From Candidatus Limnocylindrales bacterium (GTDB taxonomy: Bacteria > Chloroflexota > Limnocylindria > Limnocylindrales > CSP1-4), in assembly GCA_035248345.1 (NCBI GenBank), contig DATFHO010000082.1, positions 2,410 to 66,409 on the forward strand: a DNA stretch of 64,000 nucleotides, read 5' to 3'. The notes under the pieces were generated by a model. The model did no database searches. It saw nothing but the letters and a program-made list of their open reading frames with translations, and had not been told where the DNA came from. Positions 28,299 to 48,857 of this stretch are shown piece after piece; position 1 is the first letter of the stretch, and every line of letters starts with the position of its first letter. Position numbers and translations under genes: made by a program.

Positions 28299-28367
28299 CT
28301 TCGTATGACGTCGACGGTCATGGCCCCGCGGACCCTTCCGCCCGGCCCCGAAATCGGTCATACGAAG
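28299..28367 (+). promoter_or_regulatory. Long-range 11-bp inverted repeat in the ino1 leader (candidate structured 5-prime UTR)
   Basis: CTTCGTATGAC (28299-28309) pairs with GTCATACGAAG (28357-28367). A competing local hairpin is ATGAC-N7-GTCAT (28305-28321). CGGTCAT occurs twice. Confidence 0.35.
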
Positions 28368-28428
28368 CCTCACCGAGCAAGCAACCACCACCAGCGCCAC
28401 ACGACACAGGAGCAAGGAGCACCACCGA

Positions 28429-29691
28429 ATGGCATCGAAGCACGGCAGCAGCAACGGCAACGGCAAGAACGGCCACGCCGAGAACACCTGGGCGGGCGCC
28501 GGGCGCCGGGGCGACGGCAAGATCCGCGTCGCGATCGTGGGCGTCGGCAACTGCGCGAGCAGCCTCGTGCAGGGCCGCTACTACTACGAGAACGCCAATG
28601 ACGACGACTTCGTCCCCGGCCTCATGCACGTCAACCTCGGCGGCTACCACATCAAGGACATCGAGTTCGTGGCGGCCTTCGACGTCGACAAGAACAAGGT
28701 CGGCAAGGACCTCTCCGAGGCGATCTACACGAAGCCGAACAACACGTACGTCTTCCAGCAGGTCCCCCACACGGGCGTGAAGGTCGAGCGGGGCATGACC
28801 CACGACGGCCTCGGCAAGTACCTCAGCCAGATCATCGAGAAGGCCCCTGGCCCGACGGCCGACATCGTCGGGATCCTCAAGGAGCGCGAAGTCGACGTCA
28901 TGGTCTCGTACCTGCCCGTCGGCTCCGAGCAGGCCACGAAGTGGTACGTCGAGCAGGCCCTCCAGGCCGGCGTCGCGTTCGTGAACGCCATCCCGGTGTT
29001 CATCGGCCGCGAGCCGTACTGGCAGCGCCGCTTCGCCGAGGCCGGCCTCCCGGTCATCGGTGACGACATCAAGAGCCAGGTCGGGGCGACGATCAGCCAT
29101 CGCGTGCTGACGCGCCTGTTCATGGATCGCGGCGTCCGCCTCGATCGGACCTACCAGCTCAACTTCGGCGGCAACACGGACTTCCTGAACATGCTCGAGC
29201 GCGAGCGCCTCGAGTCCAAGAAGATCTCGAAGACCAACGCCGTCACGTCGATGCTCGACTACGAGATGGACGCGGACGACGTGCACGTCGGCCCGTCGGA
29301 TCACGTGCCGTGGCTCCTCGACCGCAAGTGGTGCTACATCCGCATGGAGGGCACGACCTACGGTGACGTGCCGCTCAATGCCGAGCTCAAGCTCGAGGTC
29401 TGGGACAGCCCGAACAGCGCCGGCGTCATCACCGACGCCATCCGCTGCCTGAAGCTGGGCCTCGATCGCGGGCTCAAGGGCACCCTCGTGGCTCCGTCGA
29501 GCTACTTCATGAAGAGCCCGCCGCAGCAGATCCACGACGACATCGCGTTCAACCGGGTCGAAGCCTTCATCAAGGGCGAGGACAACGAGACGCTCGTCGG
29601 GACCGAGCCGGCGCCGAAGAAGGCGCTCAAGCGCCTGGCCGGCAAGAAGGCCACCGTCCAGGCGGGCGCAAAGGCGGCGGCCGGCGCGTGA
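28429..29691 (+). CDS. ino1: myo-Inositol-1-phosphate synthase
   Basis: 420 aa with [16 protein letters not shown] (NAD-binding N-terminus) and other typical bacterial/archaeal Ino1 blocks. Confidence 0.88.
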
Positions 29692-30713
29692 GCCCGGCAG
29701 CCGACCGCGGTCGGACGGCCCTCGGCAGCCCGGTGCGGCGCACCGGGCGAGGGCCGCGACTGGTCGAAAAGCTTGCGATCTACGGGTACCGCGCGGGCAC
29801 GTGGCTCATGAGCCGCGTGCCCGTTCGGCTTGCCCGCTGGATCGTGACCATCGGGCTCCAGGCGTCGTTCGTGCTCGTGCCGAGCAAGCGCCGGTACGTC
29901 AACGACAACTTCGCCCACGTGCTGGGCAAGCCGCCGTCGAGCCTGGAGGTCCGGCGGAAGGCGCTCGCCGCCTACCGCTCGTACGCGCGGTACGTCGTGG
30001 AGCTCATGCGACTTCCCCGCCTCACGAACGACGAGGCCGCGGCGCTCGTCGACACCTCGTCGCTCCTGCCCCTGGAGGCGTACTGGAAGCAGAGCGGCAA
30101 GGGCCTCATCCTCACGACCGCCCATATCGGCAACCTCGAGGGCGTCGCCCGCGGCATCGCGCGGCACGGCTGGCCGATCGCGGCGATCGCCGATGACTCG
30201 GCATTCCCCGAGCTGTTCGAGCTCCTGAGCCGCCAGCGCGGCGAATGGGGCGTGAAGATGATCCCGTGGCGGAACCTGCGTGACCTGTTCGGCGTGCTGC
30301 GCCGCAACGAGGTGCTCGCGCTCATCGTCGACTGGGGCTTCAAGCCGGACGACATTCCCGTGCGACTGTTCGGCGAATGGACGACGCTGCCGGCTGGTCC
30401 TGCGGTCCTGGCCGCGAAGTCCGGCGCCTCGCTCGTGCACATCGCGGTGCGCCGCTCTGATGACCGCAAGGGCTTCCAGGTGACGTGGAGCGAGCCGGTG
30501 CTCGTGACCTCCACGGATCCCGCCGAGATCCAGCGGGCCACGCAGGCCGTCGCGGATGCGCTCGAGGCGACGATCGCCGCGGCCCCCGAGCAGTGGTACA
30601 GCTTCAAGCCCCAGTGGCCGCCGACGCCCGCGGACAAGGCTGCGCTTGCCGAGCGCGTGGCGGCGCTCGCTTCCGTGGCGGGGTCCGGTGTCGCCCCGGC
30701 GGCCGCGAGCTGA
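29688..30713 (+). CDS. Lysophospholipid/lipid A-type acyltransferase (LpxL/HtrB/PatA family), copy 1
   Basis: Family-like blocks ([20 protein letters not shown]). The position matches patA in mycobacterial pgsA1-patA-pimA operons. GTGA overlap with ino1. Confidence 0.65.
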
Positions 30714-31720
30714 TGACCGAAGCGATGGCCGATACCGCGCCGGCAAAGGCCGCGCACGTGCCCGCGGATCGCCATGCGTTCAGCGTGCGCGCAGGGCTCA
30801 TCCAGGCCGCGAGCTGGATCGCCTGCCGACTGCCGGAAGGCCCGCTCCTCTCCCTCGCCGACCTCATTGGCCGCGCATGGTTCCAGCTCGCCACCGAGCG
30901 GCGGCGTCGCGCTCGACGCAACCTCACCCGCATCGTCCGCTGGATGGCGGACCACGACCTCGGCTCGGCGGAGGTTCGCGCGGCGGCCATCGACGGCCGC
31001 GCCCTGACCCGGCTCGTCCGCGAGGCGTTCAAGTTCTCCGCGCGCTACTACGTCCAGCTCGCGCGCGCGTCGATCGTCGACCAGGCGTACCTCGATCGAT
31101 GGCTCGACGTGGAGACGCCGGAGGTCCTCGATTCGACGCTCGGCACGCCGGGCGCCCGTCTGTTCGTCGGGCTGCACATGGCGTGGTACGAGCTGCCCGC
31201 GATCATGGCCGCCGAGCGCCGCGGCCAGCCGACGATCGTTCCCTCCGAGACGCTCGGTGATCCCGCGCTGCAGGGGTACATGGTCCGGACGCGCAACCGC
31301 ATGGGCCTCGAGCTCATCGAGCTCTCCGGCGCCAAGCGGCTCCTCAAGCAGGCGCTCCTCGACGGCCGGATCGTCGGCCTCCTCGGCGATCGCGACATCA
31401 CGGGCGGCGGGATCGACACGGAGCTGTTCGGGGCGCCCGCGCCGCTCGCGGTGGGCCCGGCGCTGCTCGCGATGGATACCGGGGTCACGCCGCACGTCTT
31501 CGGTGTGTGGCGGAGTCGCGACGGCGTGTACCACGTGAGCGCGGAGCCGATCCCGATGCCTGCCGAAGGCTCGCGACGCGAGCGTGTCACCGCATACCTC
31601 GCGGCCGAGGCGCGCGCGTTCGAGCAGCACATCGCGCGAGCGCCGGAGCAGTGGCTCGCGATCTTCCACCCGATCTGGCCGGACCTCGAGGCGGATCGCA
31701 CCGCGAAGGCACGCTCATGA
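30713..31720 (+). CDS. Lysophospholipid/lipid A-type acyltransferase (LpxL/HtrB/PatA family), copy 2
   Basis: Paralogous architecture (LFVGLHMAWYE, VGLLGDRD). TGATG overlap with copy 1. Confidence 0.6.
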   Translation: MTEAMADTAPAKAAHVPADRHAFSVRAGLIQAASWIACRLPEGPLLSLADLIGRAWFQLATERRRRARRNLTRIVRWMADHDLGSAEVRAAAIDGRALTRLVREAFKFSARYYVQLARASIVDQAYLDRWLDVETPEVLDSTLGTPGARLFVGLHMAWYELPAIMAAERRGQPTIVPSETLGDPALQGYMVRTRNRMGLELIELSGAKRLLKQALLDGRIVGLLGDRDITGGGIDTELFGAPAPLAVGPALLAMDTGVTPHVFGVWRSRDGVYHVSAEPIPMPAEGSRRERVTAYLAAEARAFEQHIARAPEQWLAIFHPIWPDLEADRTAKARS

Positions 31721-32535
31721 CGGAGCGGCTCGGTCGCGCGGATCTCCACATCCACACGATGGCGTCCGACGGCACCGCAAGCGTCGTCGACATCCTCGAC
31801 CATGTCGAGCGCACGACGCAGCTCGACGTCATCGCGATCACCGATCACGAACGGATTGACGCCGCCCTCGCGGGCCGCGCCATCGCCCGCGATCGCGGCC
31901 TCCGGTTCGAGGTCATCGTCGGCGAGGAGGTCACGACCCTCGGCGGCCACCTGCTCGCGCTGTGGATCGAGGAGCCGATCCGGCCATTCAGGTCCCTCGG
32001 CTCGACGATCGCCGCGGTCCACGACCAGGGTGGCATCGCGATCCCGGCGCACCCGCTCGTGCCGTATCCGCTGTGCGCGCAGGGGTTCCTGCTCCGCCGG
32101 CTCGCGGCCGGCAAGCCGCGCTTCCGACCCGACGCCCTCGAGGCGTTCAACCCGACGACGCTCGGCAAGCCGTGGCACGCGCGCGTGGTCCGGTTCGCCG
32201 ATGAGCTCGGCTTCGCCAAGGTCGGCAACTCGGATTCCCACGCGCTCGACGCGATCGGCTCCGGGTGGACCTCCTTTCCGGGCCGGACGGCGGAGGACCT
32301 GCGCGAGGCGATCCTGGCCGGCACGACCCATCACCACGGCACGTTTCACGCCACGGTGGGCCAGCTCGGCACCTTCGGGCAGCAGCTGCGCAAGTACGGG
32401 CGGGACGCGAAGGCGAATGTCGGCGGCGTGATCCGCCGCGACGGCACGCGGCGCGACCTCGGCTACCCGCCGGAGTACTCGGCGACGGGCGCCGGCTCGC
32501 CCGGATCGGCGGGCTCGCAGGAGGAGCCGCGATGA
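31717..32535 (+). CDS. PHP-domain metal-dependent phosphoesterase
   Basis: Motifs ADLHIHTMASDG, ITDHE, AHP and NSDSH are typical PHP His/Asp metal ligands. ATGA overlaps on both sides. Confidence 0.8.
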   Translation: MTERLGRADLHIHTMASDGTASVVDILDHVERTTQLDVIAITDHERIDAALAGRAIARDRGLRFEVIVGEEVTTLGGHLLALWIEEPIRPFRSLGSTIAAVHDQGGIAIPAHPLVPYPLCAQGFLLRRLAAGKPRFRPDALEAFNPTTLGKPWHARVVRFADELGFAKVGNSDSHALDAIGSGWTSFPGRTAEDLREAILAGTTHHHGTFHATVGQLGTFGQQLRKYGRDAKANVGGVIRRDGTRRDLGYPPEYSATGAGSPGSAGSQEEPR

Positions 32536-33713
32536 AGATCGGGCTCGTCACGCCGTACGTGTACCCGCTCCCGGGCGGCGTGAACCAGCACGTCCGCTAC
32601 CTGTACGAGCACCTGCGCCTGCGCGGCCACGACGTCCGGATCATCTCGACGAAGCACGGCGTCCAGCGCGCGTCGGACGGTGACGTCATCCGGATCGGGC
32701 GCGGCTTCTCGCTGCCGGCCAACGGGTCGGTCGGCACGATCACCGTCTCGCCGCGGTTCCTCTCGCAGGTCCGCGACGTCCTCGAGCGCGAGCAGTTCGA
32801 TCTCCTGCACTTCCACGAGCCGTTCGTGCCGTTCCTGTCGCTCGTCGTGCTCGGCCTGTCGAACAGCGTGAACGTGGCGACGTTCCACGCGTTCGGCGGC
32901 TTCTCGCCCGCATACTCGATCGGGTCGAAGCTCATGGGTCCGTCGGTCAACCGGATCCATGGCCGGATCGCCGTGTCTGCGGCGGCCCGCCACTTCATCG
33001 ACCGCTTCTTCCCCGGCGACTACAAGGTGATCCCGAACGGCGTCGACGTCGGCCGGTTCGACCGCGCGGTCCCGATCGCGCGCTGGCAGGACGGCACGAA
33101 GAACATCCTCTTCGTCGGTCGCTTTGAGCCACGCAAGGGCCTCCTCGACCTCCTGAAGGCGTACCGAATCCTGCGCAAGACCGGCTGCCAGTGCCGGCTC
33201 CTCGTGGTCGGCGGCGGTCCGCAGGAGAAGGAGATGCGCAGGTACCTCATGACCCGCAAGCTCGGCGGCGTCGAGTTCCTGGGCCGGGTCAGCGACGACG
33301 AGCGCGATGCGCTGTTCAAGACCGCGGACATCTACTGCTCGCCCGCGACGGGGCGCGAGAGCTTCGGCATCGTGCTGCTCGAGGCGATGGCCGCGGGGAC
33401 AGCGATCGTCGCGAGCGACATCCACGGCTACAAGGGCGTGGTCCGGCGAGGCCGCGAAGGCCTGCTCGTCCCGCCGGGCAAGCCGAAGGCGATCGCGGGC
33501 GCGCTGGCGCACCTGCTCGGCGACGACGAGCTGCGGGAGCGGATGGCCGCGTCGGGTCTCGAGCGCGCCCAGGAGTTCAGCTGGGAGCGCGTGACCCAGA
33601 AGGTCGAGGACTACTACGGGTTCGTGATCCGGCGCCTCGCCGCCCAGGGGCAGCTGCCCGAGGGCTTCCACGCCGAGGTGCCGCCCTCACCGCGAGTGCC
33701 GACGCCCGTCTAG
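32532..33713 (+). CDS. pimA: GT4 glycosyltransferase, PimA-like (phosphatidylinositol mannosyltransferase candidate)
   Basis: MKIGLVTPYVYPLPGGVNQHV N-terminus and an EX7E region (RESFGIVLLEAMAAG). Operon context with pgsA/patA. Confidence 0.7.
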   Translation: MKIGLVTPYVYPLPGGVNQHVRYLYEHLRLRGHDVRIISTKHGVQRASDGDVIRIGRGFSLPANGSVGTITVSPRFLSQVRDVLEREQFDLLHFHEPFVPFLSLVVLGLSNSVNVATFHAFGGFSPAYSIGSKLMGPSVNRIHGRIAVSAAARHFIDRFFPGDYKVIPNGVDVGRFDRAVPIARWQDGTKNILFVGRFEPRKGLLDLLKAYRILRKTGCQCRLLVVGGGPQEKEMRRYLMTRKLGGVEFLGRVSDDERDALFKTADIYCSPATGRESFGIVLLEAMAAGTAIVASDIHGYKGVVRRGREGLLVPPGKPKAIAGALAHLLGDDELRERMAASGLERAQEFSWERVTQKVEDYYGFVIRRLAAQGQLPEGFHAEVPPSPRVPTPV

Positions 33714-33734: not shown

Positions 33735-36700
33735 TCAGGCCGGCGCGCCGCCCGCCACGTCCGCGTCGTCCGCAACGTTCGATGCCGCAAGCAGGTCGCG
33801 GCGCCGCTCCGCGAGCGCGATGCGCCACGACCACGCGCTGTACGCAATCACGATGCACGTGAAGGTCAGCACCGCGAGCACGACAGCGGGCCAGAACGCC
33901 AGCAACGGCGGCGCAGCCGCACGCTCGTCCGTGTTCACCCAGAACTGGAATGGATACAGGTAGGTCGGCAGGAAGCCCTGGTAGGCGTTGTGGAGCGCGG
34001 CCGGCAGCGGCAGCCCCGAGATGTTCGGGTACCAGAGCACGAACCAGAACGCCATCGCCACCAGCGCGCCAAGGACGAACCGGCGTGCGTCCCGTGCCGT
34101 GGCGACATATGCCGCCACCGGCGACAGGGCCAGCAGGACGAACAGGGCGATCGGCTCGACCGGGATGCCCTCCAGCTTGAGCCCGTCGGTGTCCTTCAGG
34201 ACGCTCGTCACGACGATGAACACAACCGAGGTGACGATCGCGATCACCGCTGCGGTCGCCCAGCGACTGCCGAGCCCGATCCGCGCCAGCGCGGCGCGCC
34301 AGCCGCCGCTCGCCCGCTCGGCCGCGAGGCGCTCGGCGTCATCGTCGTCGGTCGCGGCCAGGAGCTCACGGAGCAGGAGCAGCACGCCGATGCCGACGAT
34401 CACCGCGATCGCAATCGCGCGTGGGGTGATCGTCACATCCGGGATCAGGGTCGGGCAGGCCTGCGAGTCCTTGACCATGTCCTCGACGCGAGCGATCCCG
34501 CACAGTGGCCGGTGGAAGAGCCAGAGCAGGAACGGCCCGAGGACCGCCAGGCCCGCGGCGACGCGCGCCAGGAGCCAGATGCGGCGCGAGGATCCGTGCC
34601 ACAGCTCGGCGAGGAAATAGGCGAGAGCGAGGAAGAGGAACGGCAGGGCGGTGTAGTAGTGGTACTGGAACGCCGCGCGGTCGATGCGGGCCCAGGACAG
34701 CCACTGCACGAAGAACCCGATCGCGATCAGGGCGAGCGCTGCGCTGCGCCGCCGGAACGCCTGCCAGCACACGAACGCCATCGCCGGAACGGCCAGCCAC
34801 CACGCGACGAGGTTGCCGGCGTCGTAGATCGAGGCTGACGTCGCGCCCGCGAAGCCCTCCTCGTAGAACCACACCGGCTTCAGGTCGAGCGCCCACGCCC
34901 ACCACGGCGAGGCTGCCGCGTGGGGCGAGTGCAGGTTGTTGTGGTAGTCGTACATGCCCTGGGTGAGCTCGGCGAGCGTCTGCCCGGTGTGGCCCGGCGG
35001 CCAGTTGTCGAAGATCCGATGGTTCTCGACCAGCGCCCACGGGATGTACGACACGATGTACAGCGCCAGCGGGATCACGAGCAGCCCGACGAACAGCCAG
35101 ATGGCAGGCAGCCCGAACCCGGTGCCGAGGCGGAGCCAGCCGACGGGCGCCTCCGAGGGCGGCTCGAGCACCGCCACCGGGTCGTCCGGTGCGGGCGCGG
35201 CGGCCATCGGGCCGAACCCGAGCCGGCCGAAGAACAGGAACGCCACGTACACGACGGCCGCGCCGAGGAGCGCGAGCATCCCGAGCTCGATCGGCGTGGC
35301 CGAGATCGGCCCGAGCTTCATCGCGGTGGTGGCGGTGCCTCTCGCGATCCCGTACAGGACGATGAGGATGCCGGCGGCGGCGGGCGCCCCGACCGCAAAC
35401 CACTGCTCCTCGATCGTCCACGCGACCGGGTGGATGATGTTCGCGAGGACCGCGATGACGACGACCGCGAACATGATCGTGATGAACACGTAGTTGCCGC
35501 CGGTGGTCGCGTCCGGCCCGACCGAGATGGCGACCCAGCCGAGCGCGGTCGTCAGCACCAGCAGGCCCGCGATGAGGATCAGCCGCCCGAGCGCGCTCCG
35601 GGTCAGGCTCAGGATTCCGAGCCCACCGATGGCGAATGCGGCGACCCACTTCGAGGCCAGCGCGAAGCCGAGGAAGGCACCCATGATCGGCACGCCGATC
35701 GCATAGGCGATCCAGTGCCGTCGGCTGTTGCCGGGATGGAGCCACAGCGCCGCGAAGATCGTGTACGCCGCGACGATCCCCAGCCCGACGTACGAGTCGT
35801 TCATCCCGATGCGGCTCTGGGCGAACAGCATCCCGTCGAGGAACACGACCACCCCGAGGATGACTGCGACGGCGCGGCGCCGGAACAGCAGCCGCGCGAG
35901 CACGTACAGGAACAGCGCCATCAGGACGCCGGCGACCACGCCCGGGACGCGCCACGCGTACGCGTGCCGGCCGATCTGGACCGCGGCGACATGCCCGCCC
36001 GGATCGAACGCGAGGAGCTGCTCGCGGTCCGTCGACGGGTAATCCTGGTTCTCGTCCATCACGATCGCCGCCGGCACGTACGGCAGCTGCGCATCGGCGT
36101 ACACGGAGTTCGCGTGGGGCTCGATGACGTAGATGGTGTCGGCGCCGTTGTCCGGGCCGCCCTGGACCGAGCCTTCGATGTGGACCATCCGGCTCGACAG
36201 GTCGAAGAACGCCCGGCCGGCGCGCTCGCCCGGCAGCGTGAACGTCTGGTCGATGCGCGGGCCTTCGCCGCGCTTGGCGATCACCGTGACCACATCCGGG
36301 CCATCCGGCGACTGCACCGTGGCGTAGATCGGGTCGTCCTGGATGTCGTTGATGCCGACGACGCCACCGACCGGGCCGCCGACGTCGAGCGTCGACGAGA
36401 CGATCCCGGAGTCCCGGTCGATGAACGCCACACCGTTCGCCGTGCCGACCGCGATCCGGTCGTCACTGACGCCCTGGGTCAGCTGCGTGACGCCGCTCAA
36501 CCGGGGGCGCGAGATCTCCGTCGCAGCGCCGGCGTCGATGACGACGAGCTGGCTCGCGTTCGGGTCGGGCGTGGAACCGTCGGTCGTCGTATCACCGGGC
36601 TCCAGCACGGCAACGAGACGATCGCCGTCCCGATTGACGTACAGCTTCTGGATCGGGCCGCCGACGTTCATGAACGCGCGGGAATCGACGTCGACGGGCG

Positions 36701-39110
36701 GCCCGCGGATGCCGTCGAGGGCTCCGACATCGATCGCCCGGATCTCGCCCGAACGCGTGCCGACGTACAGGACGCGGCCGCCCTTGTCGTATGCGAGCGC
36801 CACCGCATCCGGCAGCGCGAGCTCCGCGGCGAGGTCCCGCGTGGCGAGGTTGTAGGCGCGGACCTCGCTGCCCGTCACCACCCACAGGCGGTCGCCGTCG
36901 ACGGTCCCGTTGACCGCGCCGCCGGAGTCGTCCCGGCGCGGCTCGATGGCGGCGTCCAGCACCGCCACGCCGAGCTGGCTCTCCCCGACGACGCGATCCT
37001 CGCCGAGAGCCATCAACCCGACCGCCATCGCGTACTTGGCCATGTGCGGGTGCGTCCACTCGTAGATGTATTTGCTGAGGCCGTACTTCCAGTCCTGGAG
37101 GAACTCGGTCGCGGTTCGCGGGTGGTAGACCTCGTCGAAGTGCATCTGGTACGGCTCGTCGAGCCGCCACATGCGCACCGTGAACAGGCTGACGGCCAGG
37201 ACGGCGAGCATCCACACGTCGAGCTTGTCGAGCCGGCCGCCACGCTCCTTCTCCAGCTCAGCGCTTCGGTCGGCGCGGGTGGGCTCGTCGTTCATGCGCG
37301 CCTTGAGCCAGCCCAGCGGCCCGAGCGTGCCCGCATCCCGTTCCGAGTCCCACTCCGGGACGGCGTACGAGGCGGCGACGGCGCCACCGGCCACGGACGG
37401 GCGCGCGAGGCCGTCGGCCCAGCCCGGGAGCCTTCGGCCCTGGGGTGGGCCCGACCAGCCGACCGGCGCGTCTCCCCGCTCGGCGCCGAGATCGAGGTCG
37501 GCTTCGTCGCCTTCGTCGCCGCCGAGCCAGCCCGCGAGGTTGTCGCGCTCGTCGCGTGGCCGCCCGGCCGTCGCGACGTCTTCGGCGACGCCCTCGACTG
37601 CCTCCTCGCGCAGCTGGAAGAACGCCCAGACCAGCACGAGGACCTGGGTGACAGCTGCGACTGCGACCCCCCATGTCGATGCGAACAGGTCGCCCGTCCC
37701 CAGCCAGTCGGCGATGTTCGGATTGCAGCTGTTCGGATCGGCGCCCGGCGAGCCACAGCCGATGTAGTAGGTCGTGAGAACGACATACATGTTCGCGAAC
37801 ATCGCCGCGGCCGAGAGGAGGTAGGCGATGCGCCAGCGCAGCGAGACGGCCGCGAGCACCGCCGCGATCCCGAAGAACGGGAACAGGTAGCGCTCGTGGA
37901 CGCGCGTCGGCAGCACGAAGAACGCCATGGCGAGGACCGCGAGCCCGATGAGCATCGTGATCCGATCCGGGCGCCGCGCGACGAGCCACAGGACCAGGAC
38001 GGCCGCGATCAGGAAGAGGGCGGCACCGACGATCGACGCCGGGAACGCCCCGATCGTGATCCCCGGGTCGCACGTCTGCGTGCTTGCCGGCCAGCTCGCG
38101 AGGACCCAGTCGCCTATCCGGAACTGGCCTGCCGGCATCGGCCCGATCGTGGAGTCGCAGATCCACGTCTTCGTGAGCGCGAGGCTCTGGTCGACCCCGT
38201 CGCTCACGCGCGTGAGCAGGGCCCACGGGTTGAACGCGTTCACGGTGATGTACGGGTAGCCGGCCGCAGTCTTGAAGATCTGGGCGATCAGGCCGGGCAG
38301 GCTGAGCCCGAACGGCAGTGACACGGCGATCGCCGTGAGGAAGCCGGCGGCGCCCGTCGACAGGATCCGGATGGGACCGCGGACGTTGCGCTCCCATGGC
38401 GTCGTCGTCGCTCGCGGCTCGGGTGCCTCCTCGAGGCCGAATCCGCCCTTCGGCCACAGCGCGCGGCGGATGACCACGATCGCGACGATCGGGATGAGGA
38501 TGCCGAGCTGGGGCTTGATGAGGGCGGCGACGGTCGCGAGGATCGCCGCGCGCTCCGGTCGATCGCGCCACAGCTCGCGCAACGCCAGGACCAGCACGAC
38601 GACACCAACGGAGTCGACCTGGCCCCACACCACGCTGTCGAACCAGGTGATCGGGTTGAAGATGACGAGCGCGGCGCCGACGCGGGCGGCCCGCTCGCTG
38701 CCGCCGAGCTCCCGGACCATCGACCACACGAGGTAGCCGATCGCGAGGTCGGCGAGGATCGGCGGGACCTTGATCAGGTCACCGACGCCGCCGAGGAGGT
38801 TCCCGATGCCGCCGACGATCCACAGGACATACAGGTACCCGGGCGTGTAGTCGTGGAAGAAATCCCGGTCGTAGAACCCGGCCAGCCCGTTGTCCGCCAG
38901 GTTGCTCGCCCAGAACTGGAACGCGCCGAGATCGTTCCTGAAGCCGGATCCGGGGATCAGGTATGCGATGATGAGCCGGAGGATGAGGCCCACGACCAGC
39001 AGGACGAGGATGCCGCTCGCGGCGCCCGCGAACCCGGTCCGTGCCGGCGCCGCCCTCACCGGGTCGGGCTCACCGATTGCGGGACCAGTCAAGTCGGGAT
39101 CGATCTCCAA
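33735..39110 (-). CDS. Giant (1791 aa) polytopic protein: N-terminal GT-C module, acidic linker, then a PMT/GT39-like mannosyltransferase module interrupted by a beta-propeller-like insert
   Basis: Residues ~25-500 form a multi-TM module with the first-loop motif FYDRDFFHDYTPGYLY (ALG6/8- or PimE-like by eye). Residues ~500-625 are a D/E/G-rich linker. From residue ~626 the sequence is PMT-like (MHFDEVYHPRTATEF, THPHMAKY, later SPHAAASPWWAWALDLKPVWFY). A ~340-aa soluble repeat-rich insert spans residues ~705-1045 (nt 35976-36998). The start is uncertain: TTG 39110, or GTG 39059. Confidence 0.7.
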   Translation of the reverse strand: MEIDPDLTGPAIGEPDPVRAAPARTGFAGAASGILVLLVVGLILRLIIAYLIPGSGFRNDLGAFQFWASNLADNGLAGFYDRDFFHDYTPGYLYVLWIVGGIGNLLGGVGDLIKVPPILADLAIGYLVWSMVRELGGSERAARVGAALVIFNPITWFDSVVWGQVDSVGVVVLVLALRELWRDRPERAAILATVAALIKPQLGILIPIVAIVVIRRALWPKGGFGLEEAPEPRATTTPWERNVRGPIRILSTGAAGFLTAIAVSLPFGLSLPGLIAQIFKTAAGYPYITVNAFNPWALLTRVSDGVDQSLALTKTWICDSTIGPMPAGQFRIGDWVLASWPASTQTCDPGITIGAFPASIVGAALFLIAAVLVLWLVARRPDRITMLIGLAVLAMAFFVLPTRVHERYLFPFFGIAAVLAAVSLRWRIAYLLSAAAMFANMYVVLTTYYIGCGSPGADPNSCNPNIADWLGTGDLFASTWGVAVAAVTQVLVLVWAFFQLREEAVEGVAEDVATAGRPRDERDNLAGWLGGDEGDEADLDLGAERGDAPVGWSGPPQGRRLPGWADGLARPSVAGGAVAASYAVPEWDSERDAGTLGPLGWLKARMNDEPTRADRSAELEKERGGRLDKLDVWMLAVLAVSLFTVRMWRLDEPYQMHFDEVYHPRTATEFLQDWKYGLSKYIYEWTHPHMAKYAMAVGLMALGEDRVVGESQLGVAVLDAAIEPRRDDSGGAVNGTVDGDRLWVVTGSEVRAYNLATRDLAAELALPDAVALAYDKGGRVLYVGTRSGEIRAIDVGALDGIRGPPVDVDSRAFMNVGGPIQKLYVNRDGDRLVAVLEPGDTTTDGSTPDPNASQLVVIDAGAATEISRPRLSGVTQLTQGVSDDRIAVGTANGVAFIDRDSGIVSSTLDVGGPVGGVVGINDIQDDPIYATVQSPDGPDVVTVIAKRGEGPRIDQTFTLPGERAGRAFFDLSSRMVHIEGSVQGGPDNGADTIYVIEPHANSVYADAQLPYVPAAIVMDENQDYPSTDREQLLAFDPGGHVAAVQIGRHAYAWRVPGVVAGVLMALFLYVLARLLFRRRAVAVILGVVVFLDGMLFAQSRIGMNDSYVGLGIVAAYTIFAALWLHPGNSRRHWIAYAIGVPIMGAFLGFALASKWVAAFAIGGLGILSLTRSALGRLILIAGLLVLTTALGWVAISVGPDATTGGNYVFITIMFAVVVIAVLANIIHPVAWTIEEQWFAVGAPAAAGILIVLYGIARGTATTAMKLGPISATPIELGMLALLGAAVVYVAFLFFGRLGFGPMAAAPAPDDPVAVLEPPSEAPVGWLRLGTGFGLPAIWLFVGLLVIPLALYIVSYIPWALVENHRIFDNWPPGHTGQTLAELTQGMYDYHNNLHSPHAAASPWWAWALDLKPVWFYEEGFAGATSASIYDAGNLVAWWLAVPAMAFVCWQAFRRRSAALALIAIGFFVQWLSWARIDRAAFQYHYYTALPFLFLALAYFLAELWHGSSRRIWLLARVAAGLAVLGPFLLWLFHRPLCGIARVEDMVKDSQACPTLIPDVTITPRAIAIAVIVGIGVLLLLRELLAATDDDDAERLAAERASGGWRAALARIGLGSRWATAAVIAIVTSVVFIVVTSVLKDTDGLKLEGIPVEPIALFVLLALSPVAAYVATARDARRFVLGALVAMAFWFVLWYPNISGLPLPAALHNAYQGFLPTYLYPFQFWVNTDERAAAPPLLAFWPAVVLAVLTFTCIVIAYSAWSWRIALAERRRDLLAASNVADDADVAGGAPA

Positions 39111-39121
39111 CGAGCGATGAG

Positions 39122-40588
39122 GTGGTCGGGAGCGTAGCAGAGGGCGCCGAGGCTTCCCGCCCCCTCGATGTCCTGGTCGCCTGGTTCGAACGGCTGCCCG
39201 CGATTGCCGTGGGGGCCGGTCTCGTTGCGCTCGCGCTGGCCGCCTACTGGCTCCCCGGCGGGGACCGCTACTACAACCACTTCGTCTGGCAGGCGCTCGC
39301 GTTCCTCCACGGCACGGCGGTGATCGACTGGCCCGTCAACTCCGGCGGATTCCCGAACGGCAACGACTGGATGCAGGATGTCTATCCCCTTCGCGAGCTG
39401 ACGGGCGACCCCTCGACGATCGGCGCCCTCCTGCCGTTCCCTCCGCTGCCGGCTGTCGTGCTCATGCCGTTCGTGGCGCTCTGGGGGCTCGCGACGGACA
39501 TCCGGGCCGTCTCGGTGCTCGTTGGGGCGGTCGACGTCGGGATCGCGTGGTGGGCGCTCGGCCGCCTGCCGGTCTCGCGCACGATCCGGTTCGCGACCAC
39601 GGTCTTCTTCGCCTTCGGCACGGTGTTCTGGTACGCCGCGCAGCTCGGAACGACGTGGTTCTTCGCCCACGTGGTGGCGATTGGCTTCGTCCTCGGCGCG
39701 GTGGGCGTGGCGCTCGGTTCGGACCCCGGCGCGGACGATGAGGTCGAACCGGAGGACAGCCCGACGCCGGCGAGCCTCGGGCGTGAGCTGGTCGCGACGC
39801 TCAAGCGGGGCACGGCGCTGATCGATCGGCGCCAGTTCCTCGCCGGTGTGCTGTTCGGCCTCGCGTGCATGGCGCGGCTCACCGTGGTCTTCGGGGCGCC
39901 GTTGCTCATGCTCGTCGGCGGGACGTCGTGGGCCCGGCGATCGATCTCGGCCGGGATCGGGGCGGCGATCCCGCTGGCGCTGCTGCTCGGCTACAACGTC
40001 GCGACGACCGGGCACCTGTTCCACCCGGGCTACGAATACCAGTACCGGCTCGAGGCCAACGGCTACCAGGCGCTGGGCTACAACCCGGATTGGGACATCG
40101 AGGACGCGCGCTACCTGCCGCAGAACATCGGGATCTTCCTGCTCGCCGCACCGGCGATCCTCCCGGACAACTCGAGCGAGTTCAACACGTTCGGTGACGT
40201 CGGGCTCTGCCAGGGAGCGACCGTCGACCGCGGCCTGTTCGACAACGATTGCCCGCTCCTCGTCCCGAAGCAGGTCGGGATGAGCATCATCCTGACCAGC
40301 CCCGCCTTCCTCCTTGCCGCCTGGGCGTTCCGGCGGCGCTCCCGCCTCGTTGCCGGCTCGTTCATCGCGGTCGCCCTGATCGCGTTCGTCAACCTCATGC
40401 ACTTCAGCCAGGGCTGGGTCCAGTTCGGCTACCGGTTCAGCAACGACTTCGTCGTGTTCGCCCTGCCGCTCGTCGCCCTCGGCATGGAGCGGCGCGGCCG
40501 GGTCGGCTGGCTCGGGATCGGGCTCGTGGCGGCGTCCGTGGTGATCAACCTGTGGGGTGTCATCTGGGGCAACATCCTCGGATGGTGA
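39122..40588 (+). CDS. Putative GT-C fold integral membrane glycosyltransferase (ArnT/PMT-like)
   Basis: About 490-aa polytopic protein with a periplasmic-type first loop. GTG 39122 is chosen because the track start 39041 would overlap the divergent giant gene. The family call is weak. Confidence 0.5.
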   Translation: MVGSVAEGAEASRPLDVLVAWFERLPAIAVGAGLVALALAAYWLPGGDRYYNHFVWQALAFLHGTAVIDWPVNSGGFPNGNDWMQDVYPLRELTGDPSTIGALLPFPPLPAVVLMPFVALWGLATDIRAVSVLVGAVDVGIAWWALGRLPVSRTIRFATTVFFAFGTVFWYAAQLGTTWFFAHVVAIGFVLGAVGVALGSDPGADDEVEPEDSPTPASLGRELVATLKRGTALIDRRQFLAGVLFGLACMARLTVVFGAPLLMLVGGTSWARRSISAGIGAAIPLALLLGYNVATTGHLFHPGYEYQYRLEANGYQALGYNPDWDIEDARYLPQNIGIFLLAAPAILPDNSSEFNTFGDVGLCQGATVDRGLFDNDCPLLVPKQVGMSIILTSPAFLLAAWAFRRRSRLVAGSFIAVALIAFVNLMHFSQGWVQFGYRFSNDFVVFALPLVALGMERRGRVGWLGIGLVAASVVINLWGVIWGNILGW

Positions 40589-42201
40589 GCAGCCCCAATT
40601 TCCCTGCCGGCCTGCGCGAGGGCCTGGCCGGTGCGCGCGCGCTTGCGCTCGCCGCGCCGGTCGTCGTCGCCGCCCTGGTCATCGTCAACGCGTGGAGCGG
40701 ACTCATGCCCGGGGTCGCGTTCTGGGACACCGGCGAGTTCCAGACCGTCCTGCCCCTCATGGGCACGGCTCACCCGACCGGGTACCCGACGTACGTGCTC
40801 CTCGGCTTCCTCGGCAACATCCTGCTGACACCCATCGGCGAGCCTGCCTTCCGCGTCACGGTTCTGTCGCTGCTCGCGGTCGCGGCCGCCGCCGCCGCGA
40901 CCGTCGTGCTCGTCCGGCGCCTCACGGGCTCCACGATCATCGGCATGGCGACGGGCGTCGGCCTCGCCACGACCCCGGTCGTCTGGCTCAACGCCACGCG
41001 GGCGGACCCGCACCCGATCCACCTGATGTTCGTGGCGCTGCTGCTCCTGGCGCTCGTGCGCTGGGAGGAGGGCCGCAAGGGGCTTGCGCGAGGCGAGCTC
41101 ACGCAGGCGCAGGCGGACCGCCGCCTCGTGATCGCGGCCGTGCTCTTCGGGCTCGCCGAGGGCAACCACTCCCTCACGCTGCTGCTCGCGCCACCCATCG
41201 CGCTGTACGTCCTGAGCGTCGAACCGGGAATCCTCAAGCGGCCCGCGTTCTTCGCGACGTGCGTGGTCGCTGCGGTGCTCACGATGGCCCTCGTGTTCCT
41301 GGAGCTGCCGATCCGCGGTGGGCTGATCCCGGCGCCGCTCGTCTACGGCCGGCCCGCCACGTGGGACGGCTTCTGGTACATCGTGTTCGCGCAGCAGTTC
41401 CAGGGCTCCGTCGGCGACATCTTCGCCGACCTCCCGCACAAGCTCGACAAGATCGTCGCCCTCGCGAATGGCCAGCTCGGGCCGCTCGCGCTCGTGGTGC
41501 CGTTCGGATTCCTCGCTTCGGCATGGAAGGCGCCTCGCTACACGCTGCTGACGGGCACGGCGCTCGTGGTGACGGTGCTCTTCAACCTCGCGTACGCGAA
41601 CGCCGACATCGAGCGCTACTACCTCGGGCCGGTGCTGTGGGTGTGGACGTGGATCGGGATCCTGGCCGCACAGGTAGCACGGCTCGTGGCGGCGGCGGCA
41701 TTCCGGCTCGGCTCGTTGTCGCGGGGCGTCTCGCTGGACTCCGAGGCCGCGAAACCCGCCGTCCTCGTCGCAGCCGCTATCGTCGCGGTCGTGATGCTCA
41801 TGCCCACCCTGGAGGACCTCGGTCCGCGCCGAGCCAAGGCGGATCGCTCCGGCGACACCGGCGCGCGGCAATGGCTCGCCGAGGTGCTGCCGACGTCCGT
41901 CATCGCCCAGGATGCCGTCCTCGTGAGCTGGTGGAGCACCTCCACGGCCCTCTGGTACGCCCAGAAGGTCGAGGGCCAGCGGACCGACATCACGATCATC
42001 GACGACCGCACGATGCTCGACGAGGACCTCGGTCGGGCGCCCGACGTCATCAGCTCGAACCTGGGCCAGCGCCCCGTCTACGTCATCCGCCTCGAGGGCC
42101 GCGATACCGATGAGCTCACGAGCCAGTTCGACATGACGCTCGTGGCGAGCGGCGGCAGCCTCGGCGTGTGGCGCGTCGACGGCCGGCTGGCGACGCCATG
42201 A
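40582..42201 (+). CDS. DUF2723/TMEM260-like GT-C membrane glycosyltransferase
   Basis: N-terminal motif PGVAFWDTGEFQTV...AHPTGYPTY followed by multiple TM segments and a C-terminal soluble domain. ATG overlaps the upstream stop. Confidence 0.55.
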   Translation: MVSSPNFPAGLREGLAGARALALAAPVVVAALVIVNAWSGLMPGVAFWDTGEFQTVLPLMGTAHPTGYPTYVLLGFLGNILLTPIGEPAFRVTVLSLLAVAAAAAATVVLVRRLTGSTIIGMATGVGLATTPVVWLNATRADPHPIHLMFVALLLLALVRWEEGRKGLARGELTQAQADRRLVIAAVLFGLAEGNHSLTLLLAPPIALYVLSVEPGILKRPAFFATCVVAAVLTMALVFLELPIRGGLIPAPLVYGRPATWDGFWYIVFAQQFQGSVGDIFADLPHKLDKIVALANGQLGPLALVVPFGFLASAWKAPRYTLLTGTALVVTVLFNLAYANADIERYYLGPVLWVWTWIGILAAQVARLVAAAAFRLGSLSRGVSLDSEAAKPAVLVAAAIVAVVMLMPTLEDLGPRRAKADRSGDTGARQWLAEVLPTSVIAQDAVLVSWWSTSTALWYAQKVEGQRTDITIIDDRTMLDEDLGRAPDVISSNLGQRPVYVIRLEGRDTDELTSQFDMTLVASGGSLGVWRVDGRLATP

Positions 42202-42974
42202 CGGGCGTCGCCGCGGTGGCAGCCGGACCTCGGCTCTCGGAGCTCTCGTACTTCTTCCCGGCGCACAACGAGGAGGCGAACCTCCAGGGGCTCGTCGAGG
42301 AGGCACTCACGACGCTGCCGGCCCTCGCCGACACCTTCGAGATCCTGATCGTCAACGACGGCTCGAAGGACGCCACGAAGTCGATCGCCGACGAGCTCGC
42401 CGCCGCGCATCCCGAGGTTCGCGCCATCCACCACACCGTCAACCAGGGCTACGGCGCCGCGCTCCGCACCGGCTTCGCCAGCGCGCGCTACGACAACCTC
42501 GCCTTCACCGACGGTGACCGCCAGTTCAAGGTGGCGGACCTCGGCAGGCTCATCGACCGGCTCGACGCCGGCACGGCCGATGCCGTCGTCGGCTACCGGA
42601 TCAAGCGCGCCGACCCGCTCATTCGCACGCTGTACGCGAAGGCCTATCGCCTCGCCAACCGCATCTTCTTCGGGCTGAAGGTCCGCGACGTCGACTGCGC
42701 CTGCAAGCTCTTCGCGCGCAGGTCGCTCGAGGGCGTGAACGTCGAGTCAGGCGGCGCGTTCTTCTCCGCCGAGCTGCTCATCAAGCTCCGCGCGCGCGGC
42801 CGTCGCATCGACGAGGTCGGGGTGCCCCACTACCCGCGCACCGCAGGCAGCCCGACGGGCGCGAAGCCGCAGGTGGTGTTCCGGGCCGTGCGCGACTTCT
42901 GGGCGCTGCGCCTGCGCCTCTGGGCGCGACCGACGAAGGCATTGGAGCGCGGCCGCCCCATCCTCGGGCGCTGA
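42198..42974 (+). CDS. GT2 polyprenyl-phosphate glycosyl (mannose/glucose) synthase, Ppm1/DPM1-like
   Basis: Motifs SYFFPAHNEE, ILIVNDGSKD, YGAALRTG and FTDGDRQF (DxD). No C-terminal TM segments. The start overlaps the upstream stop. Confidence 0.75.
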   Translation: MTGVAAVAAGPRLSELSYFFPAHNEEANLQGLVEEALTTLPALADTFEILIVNDGSKDATKSIADELAAAHPEVRAIHHTVNQGYGAALRTGFASARYDNLAFTDGDRQFKVADLGRLIDRLDAGTADAVVGYRIKRADPLIRTLYAKAYRLANRIFFGLKVRDVDCACKLFARRSLEGVNVESGGAFFSAELLIKLRARGRRIDEVGVPHYPRTAGSPTGAKPQVVFRAVRDFWALRLRLWARPTKALERGRPILGR

Positions 42975-45871: not shown

Positions 45872-46022
45872 GATGGTCCTCTGCCAGGGGCTGGTTCGGG
45901 GCGGGGATTATCGCACCTCGGGAGCGTCAGGCCGACGGCCGAGGCATGGCGCTCGTGACGCTCGAGCGGCCCCTTTGGTTGCGCGGCAGGTGCGGGGGAG
46001 CTGGCGCGGCGAGGCTGGCGGC

Positions 46023-46352
46023 TCAGCGCCGCCGGATCGTGACGCGCACCTGGCGCACCGGCAGCCCGGCCGGGGCCCGCGTGAAGGCAGCCGCCAACTC
46101 TCCTGCATGGAGCAGGACCTCCTGGCCCACGATCGGCGCGTCGGCCTCGACGACGAGCGTCTCGCCTTCGACCCGGAGCGCGCGGCACGCGCCGTGTGCG
46201 GCCGGTGCCAGCTCGGCGACGATCGCGTCGAACGTCGACACGAAGCGAGCCTTCCGAAGCTCGTCCTGGAGCCCAAGGCCGGCCGCGGCGGCAGGCATGA
46301 GGTCGCCGATGCGCTGCATCGGGCGGCGCCGTCGAGGCGCGTCCTCGCTCAT
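46023..46352 (-). CDS. DUF721 (DciA-like) protein
   Basis: Small basic protein directly after recF (ATGA overlap). The arrangement parallels actinobacterial recF-DUF721. The start is trimmed to ATG 46352. Confidence 0.6.
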   Translation of the reverse strand: MSEDAPRRRRPMQRIGDLMPAAAAGLGLQDELRKARFVSTFDAIVAELAPAAHGACRALRVEGETLVVEADAPIVGQEVLLHAGELAAAFTRAPAGLPVRQVRVTIRRR

Positions 46353-47506
46353 CGTTCGATGCGAGCCCCGGCGGCATCCGAGCGCACGGACCACGGCGTC
46401 GCGATCGCGCGGAGCGCGGCGTCCAGGTCGTCGAGCGTGGTCGTCGTCACGAACGCCTGTGGGAGCTCGGCGATCCGGCGCACGAGGTGGCCGCGGCGCG
46501 CCGGATCCAGCTCGGAGAACACGTCATCGAGCAGCAGGAGCGGCGGCCGGCCGTCGTGGCTCGTGACGAGGTCGAGCTCCGCGAGCTTCAGCGCGAGGAT
46601 CGCGGTTCGCTGCTGGCCGCGCGACGCGAAGCTCGCCAGGTCGCGGCCTGCCATCGTGAACGCGAGGTCATCACGATGCGGCCCGATCAGCGTGGTGCCG
46701 TTCCACGCCTCCTTCTCCGCCGTCTCGACGAGCCGGCGAGCGAGCGCGTCGCGGGGCGATTCGCCCGGCGCCGCCGGAGCGTTCGTCACGTACTCGATCG
46801 CGAGTGCACCGGTCGCCGCCTCCTCCGGCGCGATCTCGGCGTGGGCATCCGCGAGCGGGCCCGCCAGGTGTCCGAGGAGCGCGTGACGCGCCGCAACGAC
46901 CGCTCCACCGGCATCCAGGAACGGCTTGTCCCAGTACCGCAGCTCGTCGCGGGTCGCCGTTTCCTCGCGGATCGCCCGCAGGAGCCCGTTGCGCTGCTGG
47001 AGCGCGCGGCCGTAGGTGGCGAGCTCTGCGGCGTAGCCGGGGATGAGCGTCGCTGCGAGCTGGTCCAGCGTCCCGCGGCGCAGTGACGGAGAGCCGACCA
47101 CGAGCAGCATGTCCTCGGGCGCGAAGAGAACCACGCGCATCCGCTCGGCCAGGGCGGGCGCACGCCTCGGCACGCCGTTCACGCGGAGGCGCTTTCGTGC
47201 GCCGCTCCCGGCCGCGTGCGAGCCGGGCCGAACGAGTGCGACGTCGATGTCGGCAGCGCCGAACCGCCCCTCGATCCGCGCGATGTCGGCGCCCCAGCGA
47301 ATGAGCTCGGCGTCGGTCGTGGTGCGATGCGAGCTGCCACGCGCGAGCACGACCATCGCCTCGAGGAGGCTGGTCTTGCCCGCGGCATTCGGGCCGTACA
47401 CGAGCTGCGGTCCCGGGTCGAACCTGATGTCCAGCGCCGGATACGCGCGCATGTCGGCGAGCCGAAGCGTGTCGAGGATCACTTGCCTTCCGATCAGTGC
47501 CGTCAT
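46349..47506 (-). CDS. recF: DNA replication and repair protein RecF
   Basis: Walker A GPNAAGKTSLLEA, signature SRGQQRTAILALKLAE, and LLLLDDVFSELD. Confidence 0.92.
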   Translation of the reverse strand: MTALIGRQVILDTLRLADMRAYPALDIRFDPGPQLVYGPNAAGKTSLLEAMVVLARGSSHRTTTDAELIRWGADIARIEGRFGAADIDVALVRPGSHAAGSGARKRLRVNGVPRRAPALAERMRVVLFAPEDMLLVVGSPSLRRGTLDQLAATLIPGYAAELATYGRALQQRNGLLRAIREETATRDELRYWDKPFLDAGGAVVAARHALLGHLAGPLADAHAEIAPEEAATGALAIEYVTNAPAAPGESPRDALARRLVETAEKEAWNGTTLIGPHRDDLAFTMAGRDLASFASRGQQRTAILALKLAELDLVTSHDGRPPLLLLDDVFSELDPARRGHLVRRIAELPQAFVTTTTLDDLDAALRAIATPWSVRSDAAGARIER

Positions 47507-48772: not shown

Positions 48773-48857
48773 GTCAGGTCCACTCCATGGGCGGGGTCGG
48801 TCCAGGATTCGTCGGACGAGGGCTGCGTCGCAGAGGGTTCCCGGCTCCCGCGAAGCC

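Follow-up and report, generated by a model that had tools for sequence, protein, structure and literature searches.

A putative single-chain protein O-mannosylation enzyme of the Limnocylindria with a beta-propeller in its catalytic loop

Introduction

Can a bacterium carry the parts of a protein O-mannosylation complex in one polypeptide? The question is raised by a gene of 1791 codons (the megaprotein gene) on the minus strand of a 64,000-nucleotide stretch of DNA (the window; GenBank assembly GCA_035248345.1, contig DATFHO010000082.1, positions 2,410 to 66,409) from a Candidatus Limnocylindrales bacterium. The NCBI taxonomy places Limnocylindrales in the class Limnocylindria of the phylum Chloroflexota. 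A sequence-only reading of the window had described the product as two GT-C glycosyltransferase modules joined by a D/E/G-rich linker, the second being a protein O-mannosyltransferase (PMT) of family GT39 interrupted by a beta-propeller. The evidence given below leads us to favour, at a probability of roughly 0.55, the interpretation that the megaprotein is a single-chain bacterial protein O-mannosylation holoenzyme consisting of a GT39 module, a GT87-like module and a propeller. Its parts are, from the N- to the C-terminus:

33735..39110, minus strand: megaprotein gene, 1791 codons plus a stop at 33735-33737, with a TTG start at 39110
37596..39038, minus strand: N-module (residues ~25-505), a polytopic, GT87-like GT-C glycosyltransferase, assigned by Pfam, AlphaFold2 and Foldseek
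37236..37595, minus strand: acidic, G/A-rich linker (residues 506-625) with 13 D, 12 E and 20 G and a net charge of -11
36993..37235, minus strand: first transmembrane (TM) helix of the PMT module (TM1) and first part of external loop 1 (residues 626-706), with the DE motif and the H687-P-H689/K692 juxtamembrane helix
35973..36992, minus strand: beta-propeller (residues 707-1046), assigned by AlphaFold2 and Foldseek
34491..35972, minus strand: PMT core from TM2 onward (residues 1047-1540), with Pfam PMT at residues 1051-1169 and PMT_4TMC at residues 1378-1537
33738..34490, minus strand: C-terminal extension (residues 1541-1791), which adds some five TM helices, with an aromatic, conserved loop at residues ~1694-1738

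Reading frame and conservation of the fusion

A GTG lying 17 codons downstream of the TTG is an alternative start, and the database gene call (P0001) comprises 1774 amino acids (aa), the position of the start being doubtful by 17 codons; the conservation of residues 7-17 in the translated homologous loci favours the upstream TTG. The window has a G+C content of about 70%, and many of the long open reading frames (ORFs) listed for it overlap the megaprotein region on both strands. In the minus-strand frame the G+C content at third codon positions (GC3) is 0.83-0.98 in all 60-codon bins, the linker included, and stays at 0.85-0.90 in the same frame through the linker itself. Opposite the gene lies an antisense ORF of 1133 aa (34920-38321, plus strand), which is a high-G+C shadow of the megaprotein gene, because the GC3 pattern fits the minus-strand frame only. 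The continuity of GC3, together with the same architecture in the homologues, bears out the earlier description of one uninterrupted ORF with three parts. The insert and the linker, which had been delimited at nucleotides 35976-36998 and 37240-37610, correspond to residues 705-1045 and 501-624, and all four motifs quoted at the time were found in the translation at their given places.

A protein search covering 5.8 billion proteins returned 1466 matches, and among the best 120 of these about 110 are 1690-1820 aa long, with 96-100% query coverage and 53-85% identity. The named homologues are called “phospholipid carrier-dependent glycosyltransferase” or “Gpi18-like mannosyltransferase” and come from metagenome-assembled genomes of Limnocylindria or Chloroflexota, labels which nearly all full-length homologues carry. 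A genome scan with one genome per species yielded 47 species-representative loci that match the megaprotein at 41-85% identity, most of them from residue 1 or 7 to residue ~1770 (the shorter matches stem mostly from short contigs or contig ends). Representatives at the 50%-identity level were searched exhaustively, with 3437 matches; of those that have 900 aa or more, most, at identities as low as 32-50%, begin with the N-module, followed by loop 1, by an insert of ~300-400 aa and by the PMT core, and the remaining ones start at or just before the PMT module, resembling truncated gene calls. Mean identity is 0.25 in the linker (residues ~506-595), 0.53 in the insert and 0.66-0.79 in the catalytic parts.

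Two apparent truncations were followed up. The genome match of locus L042 is limited to residues 584-1784, yet its N-module, loop 1 and propeller are found in one ORF of 1455 aa, and the frame break falls inside the PMT core. Protein P0121 (1274 aa, without the N-module) belongs to the same 90% cluster as a member of 1798 aa. L042 is accordingly a frameshifted assembly and P0121 a truncated gene call. Several matches bear labels from elsewhere (loci L003, L012, L035, L033, L026 and L046 and protein P0380: Dormiibacterota, Patescibacteria group, Thermomicrobiales, Anaerolinea sp. or Udaeobacter); in view of the synteny that they share and of 46-71% identity over the best aligned segment, the labels are probably due to taxonomic assignment or binning that was coarse or in error, and not to horizontal transfer.

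The fusion is thus real and conserved across the class. That two or three neighbouring genes were joined because a stop or frameshift within the linker was overlooked, a suspicion which the low complexity and poor conservation of the linker and the tendency of high G+C to breed spurious long ORFs might nourish, has a negligible probability and is rejected, being refuted by the unchanged frame and continuous GC3 through the linker and by the recurrence of the same uninterrupted architecture in ~110 full-length proteins, independent of one another, and in 47 genomes obtained with varied assemblers and sequencing platforms, the two apparent truncations being explained as above.

The PMT module

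The C-terminal module (C-module) is recognised by two Pfam families. PMT (PF02366) matches residues 1051-1169 with 34.7 bits (cut-off 22.7), covering profile positions 83-197 only because the insert splits the domain, and PMT_4TMC (PF16192) matches residues 1378-1537 with 46 bits (cut-off 32.4). The DE motif, D659-E660 in the sequence MHFDEVYH (within MHFDEVYHPRTATEF, residues 656-670), aligns to the FDEV of yeast Pmt4, is invariant in 74 aligned sequences and is at least 95% conserved in both paralogous lineages described below. With both families above their cut-offs, the motif invariant and the C-terminal blocks intact, the assignment of this module to PMT/GT39, with MHFDEVYHPRTATEF as its catalytic-loop motif, stands. 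Similarity to yeast Pmt4 (E 0.005) resides mainly in the 4TMC block.

The AlphaFold2 model of residues 600-1791, built from an alignment of 74 sequences, has a mean predicted local distance difference test (pLDDT) score of 84.4 and a predicted template modelling (pTM) score of 0.86. Its membrane part is helical and confidently modelled, and the 50 top Foldseek matches of the module all fall on the propeller. The TM helices in excess of a canonical PMT are distributed over two places, about four in the middle of the PMT module (residues ~1174-1329) and about five in the C-terminal extension. For the extension (residues 1541-1791), Pfam and profile searches returned no known family, the sub-threshold matches being YbjM and T2SSK only; its aromatic loop (residues ~1694-1738) is probably extracytoplasmic. 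A Cys pair, C1537/C1552, is invariant where the PMT core meets the extension, and another, C318/C347, is invariant in the N-module; both pairs are likely to lie in external loops.

The propeller in external loop 1

The insert is situated between the second juxtamembrane helix of external loop 1 (H687-A702, in THPHMAKYAMAVGLMAL, residues 686-702) and TM2 (residues ~1049-1075, with HAYAWRVPGVVAG at residues 1049-1061), so that the earlier claim of a PMT module interrupted by about 340 residues between THPHMAKYAMAVGLMAL and HAYAWRVPGVVAG was confirmed at these boundaries. In the AlphaFold2 model, residues 707-1045 are all-beta, with ~29 strands and pLDDT mostly above 90; there are six complete four-stranded blades and a seventh that is closed by the N- and C-terminal strands, and the model is best read as a seven-bladed propeller. 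All of the 50 best Foldseek matches in the PDB are beta-propellers, mostly seven-bladed and of the WD40 type (G-beta, Tup1, WDR91, YVTN S-layer propeller), with target-normalised TM-scores of 0.6-0.77 for single-propeller chains. These results argue for a folded propeller and against a disordered insert.

In sequence the propeller is far less conserved than the catalytic parts, and a Pfam scan of the insert gave only a chance-level WD40 match (E 0.32), which does not establish its sequence family. A profile of the propeller (positions 709-811 of alignment A1) matched, marginally (E 1.2e-3), the sensor propellers that hybrid two-component systems of Bacteroides have in the periplasm (PDB 3OTT, 3VA6) and that we take to be glycan sensors.

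Because the propeller shares external loop 1 with the DE motif, and by homology with solved PMTs, it is predicted to be extracytoplasmic and to lie beside the DE active site; proximity to the active site would be forced by the connectivity of the chain. The RRR (residues 1077-1079) directly after TM2 fits a topology in which TM1 runs from inside to outside and TM2 from outside to inside, and is therefore in keeping with a propeller that faces the outside, the point for which a topology check had been proposed.

The N-module and the linker

The N-module yielded an AlphaFold2 model with pLDDT 82.9 and pTM 0.81. Foldseek comparison of this model with the PDB placed yeast ALG6 (E 5.7e-6, target-normalised TM-score 0.67), glycosylphosphatidylinositol (GPI) mannosyltransferase I (GPI-MT-I; E 1.2e-5, TM-score 0.70), PimE (9dm5; E 7.7e-5, target-normalised TM-score 0.62) and ALG3 (TM-score 0.70) among the best folds, with chains of PIG-U at ranks 5, 6 and 8. 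All of these are GT-C proteins that bind lipid-linked substrates, PIG-U itself being non-catalytic, and the GT-C-like nature of the module, as originally supposed, is upheld. The family assignment is closer to the limit: Pfam GT87 (PF09594) matches the module scanned alone with a marginal 25.8 bits (cut-off 25, residues 118-209), and in the whole-protein scan the module gave PMT_2 only, below cut-off. One of the short paralogues (P0291, see below) matches the same GT87 profile over positions 3-233 of 237 with 39.8 bits (E 5.5e-10). The N-module is GT87-like and not a second PMT.

Conserved positions of the N-module are D60, F64 and W67 in the first juxtamembrane helix, D87-Y88-x-P90, W162-G-Q164-x-D166, K199-P-Q201 and R403-x-H405-E-R-Y408. 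The acidic/aromatic motif of the first loop, FYDRDFFHDYTPGYLY, to which attention had been drawn, is present at residues 79-94, and its D87, Y88 and P90 are conserved in the homologue alignments, but its D81 and D83 are not. The likelier catalytic Asp is D60, with which the first juxtamembrane helix (residues 58-74) starts and which thus lies where GT-C enzymes have their catalytic bases; D60 and K199 of the KPQ motif are both at least 95% conserved in the two lineages. PimE has its catalytic base, D58, at the tip of its own first juxtamembrane helix, and Y92, D160, Q163, K195, W319 and H321/H322 are functionally important. D60, D158/Q164, K199 and H405 of the N-module may correspond to PimE residues by similar numbering and not by alignment; the match stays positional because neither the single sequence nor a profile of 23 N-modules matched any PDB sequence, PimE included, even at E 10. 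A beta-rich loop at residues ~300-345 is associated with the Cys pair C318/C347 mentioned above. On the strength of the conserved polar residues, we lean towards the view that the N-module is itself an active glycosyltransferase.

Between the two modules, residues ~506-595 of the linker are the sole badly conserved part of the megaprotein and contain many indels, and pLDDT falls below 50 at residues 540-587, while the last ~30 residues, right before TM1 of the PMT module, are conserved. Low conservation, indels and low model confidence agree with the D/E/G-rich linker of the sequence-only reading, and the linker is presumably cytoplasmic.

A short paralogous family

A search with the distant representative P0231 brought up hundreds of proteins of ~1200 aa from the same class, the members P0231 and P0283-P0400 of which are annotated generically as “phospholipid carrier-dependent glycosyltransferase”. 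These short GT87-PMT fusions share with the megaprotein the domain order, an insert of ~300 aa in loop 1 and the catalytic motifs of both modules; missing from them are the long acidic linker, some four TM helices in the middle of the PMT module (residues 1174-1329 of the megaprotein in the window) and most of the C-terminal extension. Identity between the short and the long lineage is ~32-35%, and the insert of one short member (P0284) matches the PQQ_2/BamB propeller family.

Positions that are at least 95% conserved in both lineages are numerous in the two membrane modules. In the N-module they are D60, F64, W67, D87, Y88, P90, K114, D121, W162-G-Q164, D166, K199-P-Q201, N294, W296, R403 and H405-E-R-Y408, and in the C-module they include D659-E660, R665, E669, H687-P-H689, K692, R1100, N1104-D1105, K1154, H1390 and H1397, among others. 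In the propeller there are only two such positions, and the propeller sequences of the two lineages are essentially unrelated. From this pattern, both membrane modules look constrained in the way enzymes are, and the propeller looks free to evolve, as a specificity domain might.

Genomic neighbourhood

The window covers a replication-origin region, with recF, dnaN and dnaA (minus strand) followed by yidC and jag (plus strand) at 46349-54335, and the megaprotein gene is ~10 kb from dnaA. An operon (nuo) for complex I occupies ~8-22 kb of the window. The genes on either side of the megaprotein gene are:

28309..33713, plus strand: convergent operon of inositol-3-phosphate synthase (Ino1), two acyltransferases, a PHP phosphatase and a GT4 glycosyltransferase
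~39170-40588, plus strand: polytopic membrane protein of ~470 aa without family, divergent from the megaprotein gene, with an invariant PFPPLP motif
~40585-42201, plus strand: TMEM260-like, polytopic GT-C protein, divergent from the megaprotein gene
42168..42974, plus strand: GT2 glycosyltransferase (Pfam Glycos_transf_2), Ppm1/Dpm1/PpgS/ArnC-like, syntenic in most loci

The order dnaN, recF, further genes, GT2, TMEM260-like protein, membrane protein, megaprotein, GT4, PHP, two acyltransferases and Ino1, with the megaprotein gene divergent from the former set and convergent with the latter, was found in essentially every locus long enough, except that in a few loci one of the three divergent genes went undetected. 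The GT2 gene, ~3 kb from the megaprotein gene, has its best NCBIfam matches, all below cut-off, among polyprenyl- and dolichyl-phosphate sugar synthases, which makes its product a candidate supplier of the lipid-linked sugar donor. The protein encoded at 39170-40588 was considered as a further GT87-like GT-C protein and rejected as such, a profile-profile comparison with the N-module being null (probability 0.8%); it matched no Pfam or NCBIfam family and may represent an undescribed GT-C family. Both acyltransferases of the convergent operon have phosphatidylinositol-mannoside (PIM) acyltransferase (PatA-like) as best NCBIfam match, below cut-off. By its gene content the operon resembles a gene set for PIM-like glycolipids and might provide the N-module with a lipid acceptor, and its PHP protein might be an inositol-phosphate or phosphatidylinositol-phosphate (PIP) phosphatase. 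No gene for phosphatidylinositol synthase turned up among the genes examined beside the locus. Between the gene for a bifunctional nuclease and recF, the window encodes a protein of 753 aa (43646-45907, minus strand), conserved in all related loci, for which no Pfam family and only a faint match to PP2C phosphatases was found.

Proposed function and rival explanations

A mycobacterial precedent for the three kinds of component is given in a preprint of July 2026 (bioRxiv 10.64898/2026.07.15.738315). In M. smegmatis, Pmt-FLAG pulled down the GT87-like protein MSMEG6899 (Rv0051) and the propeller protein MSMEG1929 (Rv3212), together with a DivIVA-like protein (Rv1209), and in an AlphaFold3 model Pmt pairs with the GT87-like protein as in Pmt1-Pmt2, the propeller being directly over the active site. 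According to a 2025 review, the GT87 enzyme PimE elongates the O-mannose on mycobacterial mannoproteins, and other actinobacteria appear to use other GT87 members. The earlier suggestion that the megaprotein couples two lipid-linked-sugar transfers with a substrate-binding propeller would, by analogy, fit both the co-purification and the elongation.

In the mechanism that we propose, TM1 would carry the chain from the cytoplasm to the outside, and loop 1 would present D659-E660 on the external side of the membrane. There the C-module would take mannose from polyprenyl-phosphate-mannose, which the neighbouring GT2 probably synthesises, and attach it to Ser/Thr of exported proteins. The propeller, beside or over the active site, would select or gate the acceptor proteins, a role analogous to that of the MIR domains in eukaryotic PMTs and to the one proposed for Rv3212 in mycobacteria. 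Tethered by ~90 residues of flexible, acidic, cytoplasmic linker, the N-module would supply a second GT-C protomer in cis, in parallel to Pmt2 for Pmt1 and to Rv0051 for mycobacterial Pmt. It would probably be an active polyprenyl-phosphate-mannose-dependent transferase that most plausibly extends the first O-mannose, as PimE does, and it may also act on inositol glycolipids. In this scheme we infer the identity of the sugar, the protein acceptor, the role of the propeller, the activity of the N-module and the packing of the two modules.

Several points weigh against the holoenzyme interpretation. The NCBIfam equivalog of bacterial Pmt (NF058602) scores 24.9 bits against a cut-off of 800, and the C-module has ~19 predicted TM helices compared with the canonical 11, i.e., ~8-9 extra ones. 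By these measures the C-module is a very divergent PMT, not an orthologue of actinobacterial Pmt, and its divergence and extra helices make a changed acceptor possible. The propeller is inside external loop 1 of the PMT and read as seven-bladed, whereas the Rv3212-type propeller is a periplasmic, eight-bladed, separate anchored protein (bioRxiv 10.64898/2026.07.15.738315), and the likeness, a comparison by kind of fold only, may be convergent. PimE was not matched by the profile search with the N-module, and ALG6 and GPI-MT-I are slightly better folds. Rv0051 was described in the same preprint as lacking catalytic residues, so the mycobacterial paradigm needs no active N-module. Since synteny in the class extends over the entire surroundings of the origin, adjacency is weak evidence of functional coupling. 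The members of the family are known from sequence alone, and their organisms are uncultured.

Among the explanations to be set beside one another, the one in which both GT-C modules are active in a two-step assembly line, the PMT module, under the guidance of its propeller, adding the first mannose to exported proteins and the tethered GT87 module extending it at once or else mannosylating the inositol glycolipids of the adjacent operon, is put forward tentatively. A variant keeps the same holoenzyme with a non-catalytic N-module, whose task would be to stabilise the PMT module and to hold the acceptor, a polypeptide or lipid, or present it. Such a role is proposed for Rv0051, which the preprint describes as devoid of catalytic residues, and is seen in PIG-U, a GT-C-fold subunit of GPI transamidase; the presence of PIG-U among the fold matches points the same way, as does the marginal GT87 score. 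The conservation across the two lineages speaks against it, however: D60, D87, D121, D166, K114, K199, R403, H405 and R407 are at least 95% conserved at ~32% identity, and an Asp is conserved where GT-C catalytic bases sit, residues that one would not expect a pure scaffold to retain. We consider this variant improbable.

Unlikely, too, is a machine for glycolipids or lipoglycans, in which both modules would extend a phosphatidylinositol-anchored mannoside (PIM- or lipomannan-like) made by the adjacent operon, the PMT-like module being repurposed to a glycan acceptor and the propeller binding the growing glycan or the cell wall. The genes for Ino1, the two acyltransferases, the PHP protein and the GT4 adjoin the megaprotein gene in all loci long enough; GPI-MT-I and PimE, two of the closest folds, both mannosylate inositol lipids; the C-module is so divergent a PMT; and the weak propeller match (E 1.2e-3) is to periplasmic propellers presumed to sense glycans. 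On the other hand, every characterised GT39 enzyme is, to our knowledge, a protein O-mannosyltransferase, and the DE motif and C-terminal blocks of the PMT are intact. The operon is convergent and not co-transcribed with the megaprotein gene, the synteny of the whole region weakens the argument from adjacency, and the genes examined beside the locus include no phosphatidylinositol synthase.

The holoenzyme reading, if it holds, has several consequences. A fusion of the same three kinds of component in a different phylum would be “Rosetta-stone” evolutionary support for the mycobacterial complex. A 2025 structural study of M. tuberculosis Pmt had asked whether bacterial PMTs form dimers and what makes up for the lack of MIR domains, and the 2026 preprint responded with a complex of Pmt, GT87-like protein and propeller that was predicted and pulled down. 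With all parts in one chain and their stoichiometry fixed, the megaprotein is attractive for solving the structure of a bacterial PMT holoenzyme, Pmt being a proposed drug target in tuberculosis, and the unrelated propellers of the two paralogous lineages constitute a natural experiment on acceptor specificity. The locus and the adjacent inositol-lipid genes suggest an actinobacteria-like mannosylated envelope in an abundant uncultured class of soil and freshwater bacteria; should the case of glycolipid mannosylation be true, PIM/lipomannan-type glycolipids and actinobacterial-style protein mannosylation would exist in Chloroflexota, outside Actinobacteria.

Comparison with known systems

The components, the idea of a GT39/GT87/propeller unit, a GT39-GT87 fusion in another phylum and the generic names in the databases are already known. 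What is new is the three-in-one architecture with the propeller in the catalytic loop and its class-wide conservation in two paralogous forms; the extra helices, the C-terminal extension and an apparently intact active site of the GT87 module, as judged from conservation, are added to these. Our literature searches found no description of a Limnocylindria protein of this kind or of a PMT whose loop 1 houses a propeller, and searches on Limnocylindria with glycosyltransferase and on Chloroflexi with phosphatidylinositol mannoside returned nothing that describes the megaprotein.

The known fusion is that of Paenibacillus, in which GT39 is translationally fused to GT87 (UniProt V9WAU2; bioRxiv 10.64898/2026.07.15.738315). 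As in the megaprotein, the two enzymes form one polypeptide, in a different phylum; compared with this protein, which is known here by citation only, the megaprotein adds the loop-1 propeller and the extra TM helices.

The mycobacterial Pmt complex (Rv1002c, Rv0051, Rv3212 and Rv1209) comprises the same three kinds of component as the megaprotein, the two being likened by kind and description: a GT39 enzyme with the DE motif, a GT-C partner of family GT87 and an extracytoplasmic propeller modelled over the active site there and predicted to lie next to it here, with polyprenyl-phosphate-mannose as the same presumed donor. In mycobacteria, however, the components are separate subunits, whereas the megaprotein holds them in one chain, and its GT87-like part keeps candidate catalytic residues that Rv0051 is said to lack. 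The megaprotein has no DivIVA-like part (its Pfam scan gave no DivIVA match), and its PMT part exceeds mycobacterial Pmt by the ~8-9 TM helices already mentioned.

A GT-C module combined with a soluble extracytoplasmic domain that binds the acceptor is also found in TMTC1-4 and TMEM260, animal O-mannosyltransferases with tetratricopeptide repeats (TPR), and in EmbA-C and AftD, which have carbohydrate-binding domains. In these proteins the soluble domain is a C-terminal appendage and not a propeller inserted in the catalytic loop, and they are not known to contain a second GT-C module.

PimE, which has about 430 aa, stands alone as a protein. This polyprenyl-phosphate-mannose-dependent alpha-1,2-mannosyltransferase of mycobacteria (family GT87, PDB 9DM5) shares with the N-module the Pfam GT87 match, the fold, an Asp conserved where the first juxtamembrane helix starts and conserved K, Q and H at similar residue numbers; the N-module differs from it by the extra beta-rich loop with its conserved Cys pair.

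Yeast PMTs, the Pmt1-Pmt2 heterodimer (PDB 6P25) and the Pmt4 homodimers (9E61, 9I5K), are GT39 enzymes that have PMT, PMT_4TMC and the DE motif of loop 1 in common with the megaprotein. Both arrangements provide two GT-C protomers per functional unit and a soluble extracytoplasmic domain that caps, or in the megaprotein is predicted to cap, the active site. In yeast the cap is a MIR beta-trefoil in the TM7-TM8 loop and the partner is a second PMT, whereas in the megaprotein the cap would be the beta-propeller of loop 1 and the partner the GT87-like module.

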